From contig JBHLRS010000013.1 of the NCBI GenBank assembly GCA_048882325.1, positions 25,375 through 89,374 on the forward strand: a stretch of 64,000 nt of DNA. Reading direction: 5' to 3'. Under the pieces are notes generated by a model. The model ran no database searches, was not told the DNA's origin, and saw nothing but the letters and a program-made list of their open reading frames with translations. Positions 9,595 through 63,993 of this stretch are shown here, one piece after another; the stretch's first letter is position 1; every line of letters begins with the position of its first letter. Made by a program: the position numbers and the translations under genes. Origin of the DNA: Candidatus Thorarchaeota archaeon (lineage in GTDB: Archaea; Asgardarchaeota; Thorarchaeia; Thorarchaeales; Thorarchaeaceae).

Positions 9595-11349
9595 CTAGTC
9601 TTCTTTCGTTTCTTCCTCAGCTGAGTCAAGCAGTTTATCCAGTTCAGCTAAGGTTTCTCCGTTGAGTGGGAGATATGAATCGTGTTCATCCTCCTCGTTG
9701 ACGTCGGTAATTCCAAACCCACCCACAGAGCGATCTAAAGGACCTAGGATAGTCTCTAATTCCTCAAGTGATTCTGCGTCTATCTCTTCGGTTTCTATGG
9801 ATTCGTCTGCAACTGGCTTTGTTTCGTCACTCCCGATTGCTTGCAGTGCTGTGTCAATCTCCTCATCGGATGCTTGTTCAATTTCTGCTGCAATAATATC
9901 ATCAAAATCATCAGTTTCGAGGGCTTCAAAGATTATGTCCTTAGCCATTTTAATGGCATCTGTATTCTCTTCGACAACAAGTTCTGGACCAGCATCAACA
10001 GTTGTTTCTGAAACATCAATCTCGGGCCCCACTGGTTCCGGTTCTGGTATTGGTTCAGGTTCCGAATCAACATCGATTTCAACGGCTATCTCATCTCCAA
10101 TGCCGACCTCATCCACTGAAACCTCAATCTCTTCTTCAACAATGGGTTCTTCGACTTCAGGTGCTTCTTCCTCAACCGCTTCGAGTTCCTCCTCTTCCTC
10201 TTCTTCCTCTACTTCTTCGATTTCTTCTTCTATAATTTCATACTCTTCAAGGTCTTCAATGATTCTACCTTCTTCATCTATATAGACTTCCTCATATTCC
10301 TCCTCTTCTTCAACTTCAGAAACGGCAGTGGCTGCAGCTGCCTCTTCAGCAGCTAGCTCTTCCATTGCATCAACTTCAGCAATAGCTTCCTCAGTAGCAG
10401 TATCTGTGAATTTTAGGAGCTCAGCAGCGGGAAGATCAGGTAATGCAACTCCTACATATTGAGCAGCCGCGTTCATGAGAATGCGTAGCATCTCATCTCT
10501 ACGGTCTTTATCAATAGCGACCATGGGGTAGGTTGGGATTCCAAGAATTTTCTGGACAACTTCTGGTTTCATTGCATTTGGCTTGTCTTGCTTGTTTGCC
10601 ATGGCAAAAACAGGAACCTTTGGTGCATCCCTCTTAATCAGCTTCAGAATGTCCTTACTTATAATGACATTTCTCAGCGTTGAATCGCAAACCAGAAAGA
10701 TGACATCAGCTCCATGAAAGTAGAATCGCCAGAGCGTTCTGAATCGTTCCTGACCTGCAAAGTCCCACAGAACTAAGGAATAGTTGCCAAACCGGATGTT
10801 TTCGACAGTTTCAAGGTTTAATGCAATTGTTGGTACATACTGAAGTGGTGGCGTATCACCTAGAAGCAGGTGAAGTGTAGTTGTCTTTCCTACACCTCCC
10901 TCTCCAACGAGAGCAATCTTGAGCCTAGTTGTCACCGAGGGCTCGATGAGAAATCTATAGTTCTTGATTGCACCTTCAATGCCATCCTTTTTGAACTTCC
11001 TTCGAAGAGCCTTCAAAGCAATATCGATCTTTTCGTAGGTGTTTCCTTCGTCTTCACCTTTATCAGTCACGAAGACAAGAGTTGAGTCTTCAATCCAGTC
11101 CTTTCCAAGGAATTTGTGGTCACCTATAATCAGGGGTAACTCCTGTACTTGTCCGTGACCAGTTCTGAGTTCCTCTCTTGTTGAGATGAACTCCATCAGT
11201 GCTTCGTTGCTCACTTCTACTGGCCAGTACTGTGTCGATGCGATTATCTGTTGTGTGGAAATGCGGACAAGGAAAGTATTGTGGATCACTTCAGCATCAC
11301 CGGATTCATTCACTTCAAGAGGGTAGTACACTAATGCGCTTTTTATCAC
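9595..11349 (-). CDS. Arf/Rab-like small GTPase with N-terminal longin-like domain and very long acidic tail
   Basis: GEGGVGKT, PTIA, WDFAGQERFRTLW, NKQD motifs; ~140-aa N-terminal domain; ~270-aa Glu/Asp-rich C-terminus. Confidence 0.85.
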   Translation of the reverse strand: MIKSALVYYPLEVNESGDAEVIHNTFLVRISTQQIIASTQYWPVEVSNEALMEFISTREELRTGHGQVQELPLIIGDHKFLGKDWIEDSTLVFVTDKGEDEGNTYEKIDIALKALRRKFKKDGIEGAIKNYRFLIEPSVTTRLKIALVGEGGVGKTTTLHLLLGDTPPLQYVPTIALNLETVENIRFGNYSLVLWDFAGQERFRTLWRFYFHGADVIFLVCDSTLRNVIISKDILKLIKRDAPKVPVFAMANKQDKPNAMKPEVVQKILGIPTYPMVAIDKDRRDEMLRILMNAAAQYVGVALPDLPAAELLKFTDTATEEAIAEVDAMEELAAEEAAAATAVSEVEEEEEYEEVYIDEEGRIIEDLEEYEIIEEEIEEVEEEEEEEELEAVEEEAPEVEEPIVEEEIEVSVDEVGIGDEIAVEIDVDSEPEPIPEPEPVGPEIDVSETTVDAGPELVVEENTDAIKMAKDIIFEALETDDFDDIIAAEIEQASDEEIDTALQAIGSDETKPVADESIETEEIDAESLEELETILGPLDRSVGGFGITDVNEEDEHDSYLPLNGETLAELDKLLDSAEEETKED

Positions 11350-11431
11350 TAAGTTATCCCTTAGGGCATAGATTAAGCTGTCCTGTGTGTATATTTTGAT
11401 ATTCTGTGTATCTACTCATGATAACAATAGC

Positions 11432-11622
11432 AAAAATGTTGGAGCGGCGGGTCCGCCGAGGCGAACCTTCCGCATCCGTGGAGCTCTTCTTGGCAGGATG
11501 CATGGTAAAATCAAATTACATGCGCAAGACTGCCCCGAAGGGCAATAGGGACCTAGAACTCACTTTGGGACCGTGTTTGCTGCGAGTTCCTGACGGGGGA
11601 AGCCATGCAACCCTGTCATGAA
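11432..11622 (-). ncRNA. Unassigned structured RNA (sRNA or 5' leader)
   Basis: GC-rich intergenic block with six helices. G-U pairs and a C(UUCG)G tetraloop mostly favour the minus strand. BRE/TATA-like AGAAAGCTTCTTATG upstream (11650-11664) and U-tract at the 3' end. Confidence 0.55.
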
Positions 11623-11796
11623 GATTCACAAGCCCGAAACGCAAAGTAACATAAGAAGCTTTCTAGGTTTTTCTTGAGCACTCCCAAATCGATTTTCTAT
11701 GAAGTATTCGCAGTAATATCGGGGTCATATTGGGGAAATCGCAGGAACTCTGGAGTCCAATATATCATGTTCAGGATGCAATATGAGGATCTTCGT

Positions 11797-12936
11797 CTAC
11801 CTGGGAAAGTTGTCTCTGAGTAGCCGAAGATGATGGTGAACCATTTCCATTTGCTTAGGATCATCCGGAGTCTTCTCAAGATCAGTCACTAGAGTCTGCA
11901 AAAAGTACTCTGGGAAGAAGAGCCTGACACGAATGTCATTCAGAAGGAACAACCATTTGTCATACTCACCAGATGCACCCTTACGCCGTTTCTCAGAGAT
12001 TATCCTGAATTTCTTTAAGGTCTGGATGGCAGTCTTTAGCTCCTTAGGTGGAATTGCAAGAGTGGCTTCCAATTCAGAAATGTTAACAGGTCTTCTCCTG
12101 AGTTCACTTAATGTATCATAGCAGTCTGGATCAGCTAAAACTTGGGCAACAGATACGGTATCCTCAGGAGTCTTTTGCCACTCTGTTAAGAACTCTAGCA
12201 CTTCTGACTTGTATTCAGCAGCGAGCTCCGGGTCCAAAACACTACCTGCCGATTCCATTGCTACCAAAGGTGGTGCACGGAAAACTTCGAGGTCTTTTAT
12301 CATGAAAACACAAGTTCGACCAATTTCGTCAACCCACTCGGTCTTCACGAGTCCTAGCTCTTCAAATGGAGCAACTACAGAATCGACACTCACACTAGGC
12401 AAGCCTGTGACCATTTTAAGCCACTCTTCAAGCTCTTCTTTGGAGATACCTCCCTTCCAGAGCTTTGGAAACACAGCTCGTGATACTTCATCTGAGAATA
12501 GTCGTGCTAGACGTGACTCATCAGTCATTCCTGCAAGTCGGATGATTCTACGATATGTGTTGTCGAGCTCGGTCTGCAATTCCGCATCAGTCATGGATAC
12601 AACCGCGTTCGTGAGGGGGGTAACCACTGAAGTGATCGCAGCCTCGTATGTCTTGGGATCCTCAGAGGGTGTGAGAAGTAGAGAAACACAGTACTGCTCC
12701 TCTTCTCGAACAATACCAGTGTAGTATGAAGCAACACCATATTCTTCTCCTCCAATTCTAACACTTAGTGATGAGAATCCTGCAGTTGCGTCACCCATGG
12801 CATGTGACGTAAAGATACGCATAATTTCTGTATTGAGGTCCTCTCTGTAGTAGTCAGCAAAGTCAGCAGGCACTTTAGCCTTTAAGACAGCACCAATCTT
12901 TGAGTCCCAATCTATCAGCAGCATCGCTACGGGCAT
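11797..12936 (-). CDS. Longin/uDENN-like (NPRL2-type) domain protein with C-terminal winged helices
   Basis: N-terminus MLLIDWDSKIGAVLKAKVP resembles the first hairpin of uDENN/longin; two wHTH-like segments follow. Confidence 0.6.
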   Translation of the reverse strand: MPVAMLLIDWDSKIGAVLKAKVPADFADYYREDLNTEIMRIFTSHAMGDATAGFSSLSVRIGGEEYGVASYYTGIVREEEQYCVSLLLTPSEDPKTYEAAITSVVTPLTNAVVSMTDAELQTELDNTYRRIIRLAGMTDESRLARLFSDEVSRAVFPKLWKGGISKEELEEWLKMVTGLPSVSVDSVVAPFEELGLVKTEWVDEIGRTCVFMIKDLEVFRAPPLVAMESAGSVLDPELAAEYKSEVLEFLTEWQKTPEDTVSVAQVLADPDCYDTLSELRRRPVNISELEATLAIPPKELKTAIQTLKKFRIISEKRRKGASGEYDKWLFLLNDIRVRLFFPEYFLQTLVTDLEKTPDDPKQMEMVHHHLRLLRDNFPR

Positions 12937-13090
12937 TTTACTTATCTCCCAGTCCCTGGAGTTAGGTAGTATAAAGCCAGACTAATTTACGTTGCATGGT
13001 GCCAGCCTAAAAAACCTTGTCTTATTTGGACCCGACTATTTGAAATATCGAATTGTTCAGCGCTTTTTAGATACCCACCTTAGAATACTC

Positions 13091-63874: not shown

Positions 63875-63993
63875 TGGTGCGGAGGGCGAGATTCGAACTC
63901 GCGATTAGGCCATGAGAGGAGAAATCCGCACATGTACTCCTACGAGACAGGGATCTGAGCCCTGCGCCTTTAACCTGGCTTGGCAACCTCCGC
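63875..63993 (-). tRNA. tRNA-Leu(CAG) with 31-nt intron (63905-63935) at the 3' side of the variable arm; CCA encoded
   Basis: GCGGAGG..CCAGGTTAAAGGCG CAGGG CTCAGAT CCCTG TCTCGTAGGAGT [intron] TC GCGAG TTCGAAT CTCGC CCTCCGC ACCA. Confidence 0.93.

Follow-up and report, generated by a model that had tools for sequence, protein, structure and literature searches.

A conserved, structured non-coding RNA gene beside a longin/winged-helix protein gene in one family of Thorarchaeota

Introduction

Asgard archaea are the closest archaeal relatives of eukaryotes, and to our knowledge almost nothing is known about their non-coding RNAs beyond the universal ones. In a genome of Candidatus Thorarchaeota, the 450-nt spacer between an ORF of 379 amino acids and an ORF for a 584-amino-acid GTPase contained a G+C-rich island (0.51-0.56, compared with 0.37-0.45 in the flanks). 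A preliminary description of this DNA had placed an unexplained structured RNA there, on the minus strand, and had suggested as candidates a novel Asgard non-coding RNA or a riboswitch-like leader of the GTPase gene. This raised the questions of whether the island encodes an RNA at all, whether such an RNA is a leader or a gene of its own, and what it might do. All coordinates below refer to the window, the 64,000-nucleotide stretch of contig JBHLRS010000013.1 that was analysed.

Results and discussion

Extent and transcription signals of the RNA gene

The main features of the locus were as follows.

11432-11627, minus strand: gene for a non-coding RNA of ~196 nt
11650-11664, minus strand: BRE/TATA-type promoter AGAAAGCTTCTTATG, located by exact match
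11432-11440, minus strand: 3' tail AACAUUUUU, a probable oligo-U termination site, U/pyrimidine-rich and variable in relatives
11384-11397, minus strand: AAAATATACACACA, a separate A/T-rich promoter-like block of the GTPase gene
9595-11349, minus strand: GTPase gene (584 aa), with an Arf/Roc/Ras-type GTPase domain at residues ~141-280
11797-12936, minus strand: gene for a 379-aa protein with a longin and two winged-helix domains, the proposed regulated gene

A structured RNA was present on the minus strand much as first described, with bounds of about 11627-11432 here rather than 11622-11432, and covariance model R1 scored the locus at 242 bits. The promoter-like element that had been noticed in front of it was genuine in the sense of being conserved: it was kept in all 24 genus members, and in most other genera the promoter upstream of the RNA was recognisable as a CYAGRAAGSTTCWTATG-like element. 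From the spacing, transcription is predicted to start near 11627, ~23 nt downstream of the BRE/TATA element. The RNA terminated in a hairpin and a U/pyrimidine-rich tail, and we infer a 3' end near 11432. The AUUUUUG at this end had been read both as a terminator and as a fit to an Sm-site consensus. Within the genus the same position reads AUUUCUC, AUUAUUA, GUUUUCC or AUCUAAC, so that it can at most be a U-tract terminator, and the Sm-site reading falls. A conserved BRE/TATA element upstream together with a hairpin and U-rich end, both read from sequence alone, are the marks of an independent transcription unit. Adding the model match, the homologues in other genomes and the covariation described below, the reading of 11627-11432 (minus strand) as a stand-alone gene for a structured non-coding RNA of ~196 nt is strongly supported.

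The strand was fixed as minus by G-U pairs, which were frequent at many positions of the conserved structure. Folding of the single sequence gave z-scores of -2.4 on the minus and -2.9 on the plus strand, values so similar that thermodynamics alone decide nothing, and the minimum-energy fold differed from the conserved one.

Conserved secondary structure

When the two clades of the genus were aligned with MAFFT alone, they were misaligned and RNAalifold recovered no more than 19 pairs. They were then folded separately and realigned with a covariance model, built from nine sequences and a hand-drawn structure, that was used to realign all 24 genus sequences. Folded separately, the two clades yielded the same architecture: a three-part closing helix P1 (P1a, P1b, and P1c with a bulged U) around a junction from which hairpins H2 and H3 project, with a further hairpin, H4, and the U-rich tail on its 3' side. 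Helices were placed from conservation and covariation and junction strands from the alignments.

11603-11624, minus strand: 5' strand of P1 (P1a 11624-11620, P1b 11615-11612, P1c 11611-11603 with the bulged U)
11591-11602, minus strand: junction strand J1, CUUCCCCCGUCA, in which CCCGU is near-invariant in the family
11555-11590, minus strand: hairpin H2, 9 bp, with an 18-nt loop holding GGUCCC copy 1 (11572-11567)
11548-11553, minus strand: GGUCCC copy 2, single-stranded in junction J2 between H2 and H3, in nearly all family members
11531-11544, minus strand: hairpin H3 (UUGCCC-UUCG-GGGCA), variable in sequence and length
11506-11530, minus strand: junction strand J3, with the near-invariant CUUGCGCAU (11528-11520) and a conserved U-rich tract before P1
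11485-11505, minus strand: 3' strand of P1 (P1c 11505-11498, P1b 11497-11494, P1a 11489-11485), containing CCAUGCA
11471-11479, minus strand: near-invariant ACGGAUGCG at the start of H4a
11441-11477, minus strand: 3' hairpin H4 (H4a 11477-11470/11447-11441, H4b 11467-11461/11456-11450)

Across the 24 genus sequences, 96.5% of cells were paired, compared with 34-45% in slid controls, 25 of 45 pairs had changed on both sides, and none of 500 shuffles did as well. For 37 representatives of the family the corresponding figures were 93.4% paired against 36-49% in slid controls; 40 of 45 pairs showed compensatory changes, and again 0 of 500 shuffles was as good. Model-fitted alignments and relatedness among the sequences make these pairing figures generous, but the same structural verdict follows from the slid controls, from the independent folding of the two clades and from the hairpin shape of the insertions. 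P1 comprised 17 pairs, every one of which showed a compensatory change family-wide, with up to six pair types per position. All five pairs of H3 were compensatory and 100% paired, and the 14 pairs of H4 were 96-99% paired with compensatory changes in 11. Between the two clades, P1c exchanged UGCAUGG/CCAUGCA for GGCGGU/ACCGCC while retaining the bulged U, H3 exchanged GCCC/GGGC for GCAGU/ACUGC, and H4 was rebuilt, all by compensatory changes.

Measured against this structure, the helices first drawn from the single sequence divided into two groups. Conservation and covariation backed the helix 11590-11582/11563-11555 (H2), the hairpin AUUGCCC-UUCG-GGGCAGU at 11546-11529 (H3) and GGUUCGC-CUCG-GCGGACC at 11467-11450 (H4b). 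The proposed helix 11618-11611/11598-11591 was only 62% paired, lacked compensatory change and did no better than shuffles, and the 11523-11500 hairpin and the GCAUCC/GGAUGC helix were both impossible in the sister clade of the same genus. The complementarity of UGCAUGG (11609-11603) to CCAUGCA (11505-11499), first seen as a pseudoknot or switch that competes with local helices, turned out to be P1c, part of the main closing helix and the helix with the best support; the pairing stands, and the pseudoknot or switch role does not. As the three local helices that clash with P1 were not conserved in relatives, the mutually exclusive pairings belong to one sequence and there is no conserved switch between them.

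Indels in the RNA took the form of clean hairpins. Four species (L012, L014, L015 and L018) carried a 17-nt insert, GUUUCGAAAGAAAC, at the J1/H2 boundary, which forms the hairpin GUUUC-GAAA-GAAAC, and two loci (L010 and L011) had a hairpin inserted at the 5' end with the stem AAUCUUCA...UGAAGAUU.

Conserved single-stranded elements

The most conserved unpaired elements family-wide were CCCCGUC in J1, ACGGUCCC or UUGGUCCC in the H2 loop, (U)GGUCCC(C) between H2 and H3, CUUGCGCAU in J3, and ACGGAUGCGG. The H2 loop motif was invariant in 22 of 22 core sequences. GGUCCC was exposed in two to four copies per RNA, the third and fourth copies occurring in other genera and often lying in a hairpin loop; in the sister clade of this genus, copy 2 reads AGUCCC. 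The ACGGAUGCG element was complementary both to J1 (CCGU) and to J3 (CGCAU), in competition with H4a, and its contact with these strands could be a tertiary or alternative pairing.

Distribution

Within the genus, 23 of 24 genomes had a BLASTN match to the RNA region, and they fall into two clades. Of the 87 genomes of the class, 70 yielded one copy with the full covariance model, all from one family and covering 11 of 17 genera, and the RNA always lay just downstream of the orthologous 379-aa gene. Among the misses, that gene was absent or cut by a contig end in three genomes. Of the remaining genera, three yielded weaker copies, recognised by eye or with filters off (g15 had already been counted through other genomes), and a fourth, g21, was recovered with a core model of 96 positions of the RNA, which was used for the family and phylum search. 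Copies in g15, g16 and g18 were present but weak, and that in g28 was divergent. Of 26 family genomes, the core model recovered the RNA in 23, while a search of 125 genomes belonging to 26 other Asgard families gave no hit; among the genomes searched by sequence and structure, the RNA is restricted to one Thorarchaeota family.

Two irregular loci were seen. Downstream of the 379-aa orthologue in one g28 genome (L093, on G094:C26), the RNA copy had decayed: its motifs read GGUUCC and AAUUCC, and CCCCGU was lost. Sister genomes in g28 had a divergent but intact RNA. One assembly of the present genus (G010) held two different full-length loci, at C103:179-375 and C21:38491-38706, scoring 243 and 212 bits; since its estimated contamination is 7%, two strains in one bin are more likely than a duplication.

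Known RNA families and other identities

At the gathering threshold, the only match of Rfam 15 in the whole window was a tRNA at 63878-63993 (minus strand), and a permissive search of 11250-11850 (E up to 10) gave best matches of E = 2-5.6, far below threshold. The initial impression of a novel Asgard RNA that is not RNase P, SRP or tRNA was supported by model searches. RNase P RNA (RF00373) had a full-length copy elsewhere in the assembly (C3:141896-142234, 164.6 bits) and SRP RNA (RF01857) a partial copy at a contig end (C25, 50.5 bits), and neither model matched at the RNA locus. No description of this RNA was found in the literature on Asgard or Thorarchaeota small RNAs. The family is new, having no match in Rfam and no description in the literature found.

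Several other classes were considered and rejected. The box C/D motif RUGAUGA occurred in 0 of 37 family members, and CUGA appeared sporadically, at no conserved position. H4 had only a 2x2 internal loop and a bulge, with no pocket as in a box H/ACA sRNA, and the ACA in the tail of the RNA becomes AUA, AAU, AUU or CCU in other genera. An Sm-site RNA, which would have a conserved single-stranded AU4-6G, was rejected, the AUUUUUG at the 3' end being variable; the internal U-rich tract of J3 was conserved and is, by its sequence only, a candidate Sm-like site. Dispersal as a MITE or other repeat, which had been named as grounds for abandoning the RNA, was absent: the 3.6-Mb assembly (G000) held one full copy, its remaining matches being 15-30 nt of chance similarity, and there was one copy per genome family-wide.

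The tRNA match at 63878-63993 spans 116 nt, compared with 71 positions in the model, which suggests an intron-containing tRNA gene. Signature sequences of 16S, 23S and 5S rRNA were found in none of the 89 contigs of assembly G000.

Gene neighbourhood and relation to the GTPase gene

Across genera, the gene order thymidylate kinase, 379-aa gene, RNA, GTPase, Ssb-like gene and deoxyribosyltransferase was kept. The RNA lies on the strand of the Arf-like GTPase gene, ~80 nt upstream of its ORF in this genome, and the two are adjacent in many genera, as would suit a cis-acting 5' leader or riboswitch. This reading is largely refuted, and we regard it as very improbable. Between the terminator-like RNA end and the GTPase ORF, the genus alignment showed the separate promoter-like block at 11384-11397 to be conserved, and the RNA showed no conserved pairing with the start region of the GTPase gene. 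At least three other genera (up to five, one of them borderline) have the RNA and the GTPase gene parted by more than 1 kb of DNA or by an ORF of ~240-326 aa on the opposite strand: such an ORF (241-326 aa) directly follows the RNA 3' end in L069, L076, L077, L084 and L085, and more than 2 kb separate the two in L078 and L079. With its own promoter and end, a separate promoter block for the GTPase gene, and intervening ORFs elsewhere, the RNA is a separate gene and not a GTPase leader. Like riboswitches and other cis leaders, it has a multi-way junction whose joining strands are invariant and a 3' hairpin that may alternate with another pairing; it differs from them in lacking a consistent downstream gene and any Rfam match and in having its own promoter and end.

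Regarding the GTPase itself, the N-terminal 140 and C-terminal 300 residues of the 584-aa protein had no family match, and only its first ~320 residues aligned across genera.

The upstream longin/winged-helix protein

The gene on the other side of the RNA encodes a protein without a Pfam family, which is 84-97% identical in amino acids across genera, well above what its neighbours show; the thymidylate kinase reaches only 54-64%. An AlphaFold2 model made from a shallow alignment (pLDDT 53) was not used; with a 49-sequence alignment from a sensitive search, pLDDT rose to 92.5. Residues 1-139 of this model formed a longin domain, for which the top structural match was a Lokiarchaeota Roadblock-Longin protein (Z 12.8, 131 residues, rmsd 3.1), followed by NPRL2/NPRL3 of GATOR1 and the yeast SEA complex (Z 11-11.7), FLCN/FNIP and DENN. 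Residues 254-339 formed an ArsR-like winged helix (Z 9-9.8). A paralogue of the protein, with ~24-28% identity, was present in this genome and in each of nine others searched.

A candidate target in the leader of the upstream gene

In front of the 379-aa ORF, the leader here reads AGGGACU-GGGAG and contains the proposed target of the RNA.

12946-12956, minus strand: GGGACU (12956-12951) directly 5' of the Shine-Dalgarno sequence GGGAG (12950-12946), with the ATG at 12936

Of the first 30 loci compared across genera, 28 had GGGAC[C/U] abutting GGAG at -18 to -21 (29 of 37 checked overall), and the leader outside this GGGAC[C/U]-GGAG varied among loci. GGGAC[C/U] is the exact complement of the most conserved single-stranded motif of the RNA. 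The AGUCCC variant of the RNA was confined to loci with GGGACU in the leader (genus g1 and L070), and GGGAC[C/U] was not seen in the leader where the RNA is absent or decayed (L095 and L093). The genome uses Shine-Dalgarno sequences widely, GGAG-type words being 4 to 5.7 times enriched upstream of starts. Ranked within this genome by the predicted energy of its duplex with the junction motif, this leader came 31st of 3033; with the H2 loop it ranked only 370th of 3033.

On this evidence, we postulate that the RNA acts in trans on the mRNA of the adjacent longin/winged-helix gene. The two exposed GGUCCC motifs, in the H2 loop and in the H2/H3 junction, would pair with GGGAC[C/U] immediately 5' of the Shine-Dalgarno sequence and so control access of ribosomes to the 379-aa mRNA, in the simplest form by blocking the ribosome-binding site. 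CCCCGUC, CUUGCGCAU and ACGGAUGCG, the invariant strands of the junction, probably form a compact core that presents the GGUCCC motifs. A trans-acting translational regulator of the neighbouring gene is the best single mechanism that we can propose, and we give it a probability of about 0.4.

Several observations bear on how tentative this must be. The complementarity was assessed post hoc, with this target already proposed. The predicted duplex between RNA and leader is only 6-7 bp long, and six RNA-bearing genomes (g15, g18, g28 and L071) keep GGUCCC without a leader site, so the leader target is not the sole reason for conservation of the motif. Upstream of starts genome-wide, GGGAC[C/U] was not enriched (22 observed, ~27 expected), and the full GGGAC[C/U]-GGAG-start form was found at only 7 sites. 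Two further candidate targets were rejected: the leader site of a small GTPase on contig C17 was not conserved in five other genera, and a candidate on C29 had no orthologues in the same five genomes.

For this leader, RNAalifold predicted no conserved hairpin. By eye, a pyrimidine-rich block resembling CUCC was noticed ~30 nt upstream of the leader site, with a putative CUCC...GGAG stem that would sequester the Shine-Dalgarno sequence. In g28, the leader had GGGACC in 0 of 3 genomes.

Alternative explanations of function

Some 60 unpaired nucleotides of the multi-way junction are near-invariant across genera whose housekeeping proteins are only ~55-60% identical, a constraint that exceeds what is typical of a base-pairing sRNA and fits a ribonucleoprotein or ligand-binding core. 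The RNA may instead be part of a ribonucleoprotein, or a protein-titrating RNA, in which GGUCCC and the junction core bind one or more proteins and the leader match is secondary or coincidental. We consider this possible, though less probable than translational regulation. The repetition of one motif in two to four copies, in loops or junctions of each RNA, its retention in genomes without the leader site, and the conserved U-rich tract in J3, which could bind an Sm-like protein, all agree with it. It names no partner protein, however, and as the RNA was not found in the 26 other Asgard families searched, any partner must be lineage-specific too. Moreover, what the leader bears is the complement of the motif, and a single-strand-binding protein common to RNA and leader would leave this unexplained.

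The near-invariant strands could also point to an RNA that senses a ligand or is catalytic, an orphan riboswitch- or ribozyme-like molecule acting on its own transcript or in trans, in which docking of ACGGAUGCG on J1 (CCGU) and J3 (CGCAU) would give a pseudoknotted core, in alternation with H4a. The three strands are mutually complementary, J3 and J1 together covering one continuous 9-nt stretch that is ~90% pairable, and H4a contends for the same nucleotides. In one locus (L090) the 9-mer carries a U-to-A change and J3 the A-to-U change that restores the pair, but L076 and L077 have the same U-to-A change without compensation. The positions in J1, J3 and the 9-mer are otherwise invariant and give no covariation, whereas H4a is itself kept by compensatory changes; no regulated gene is consistently downstream, and no known ribozyme or riboswitch model in Rfam matches. 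We think this reading unlikely. No likelier is a composite in which a lineage-specific riboregulator or ribonucleoprotein scaffold, with a pseudoknotted and possibly ligand-responsive core, would be wired into a eukaryote-like longin/GTPase signalling module made up of the GATOR1-like longin/winged-helix protein and the longin-Arf-type GTPase.

That the island is not an RNA gene at all is strongly disfavoured, with a probability that we put very low. A conserved DNA regulatory region with GGTCCC/GGGACC sites for a winged-helix protein would suit a neighbouring protein with ArsR-like winged helices, and the motif does lie on opposite strands at the RNA and at the leader, as a double-stranded site could. 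Compensatory changes at 40 of 45 positions and strand-specific G-U pairs are, however, inexplicable at the DNA level. A small protein gene would account for the island no better, as no ORF was conserved in frame or strand and indels were not multiples of three.

Significance and comparison with known systems

The RNA combines family-wide occurrence and strong covariation with a clear gene and a concrete target hypothesis. Its proposed target is the ribosome-binding region of the gene for a highly conserved NPRL2/3-like (GATOR1) protein, which lies beside an Arf-like GTPase gene. If the RNA does act on this target, it would represent RNA-based control of a eukaryote-like GTPase-regulator module. 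Should the less probable composite of riboregulator and scaffold hold, it would add an RNA layer of control over the Asgard small-GTPase system, for which we know of no counterpart. Even without the target link, the RNA is well suited to enter Rfam as a family of its own, and its invariant junction core lends itself to structural work.

Among known systems, compared by description, the RsaE/RoxS-type sRNAs of Firmicutes are stand-alone RNAs with several exposed C-rich, UCCC-containing motifs that pair with G-rich sequence at or near the Shine-Dalgarno sequence. The Thorarchaeota RNA is similar in exposing C-rich motifs in loops and linkers and in its proposed pairing near the Shine-Dalgarno sequence. 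It differs in being archaeal and about twice as long, in its multi-way junction with invariant strands, and in its motif, GGUCCC, which is proposed to pair beside the Shine-Dalgarno sequence rather than with it; it also has only one conserved target candidate, the neighbouring gene, and no similarity by Rfam model. Archaeal trans-acting sRNAs, such as those of Methanosarcina mazei and Haloferax volcanii, are independently transcribed and pair with mRNA 5' regions, and are generally species- or genus-level and weakly structured. Transcription of its own (here predicted) and pairing with an mRNA 5' region (here proposed) are shared with these, whereas the present RNA has a fixed locus and covariation-backed conservation across at least 16 genera. 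In CsrB/RsmZ RNAs, which sequester protein, short motifs are repeated in hairpin loops and single-stranded linkers. We know of no CsrA-like partner in archaea, and the RNA described here, although it likewise repeats a short motif in loops and linkers, has only two to four repeats of a different motif, the complement of which lies in the neighbouring leader.
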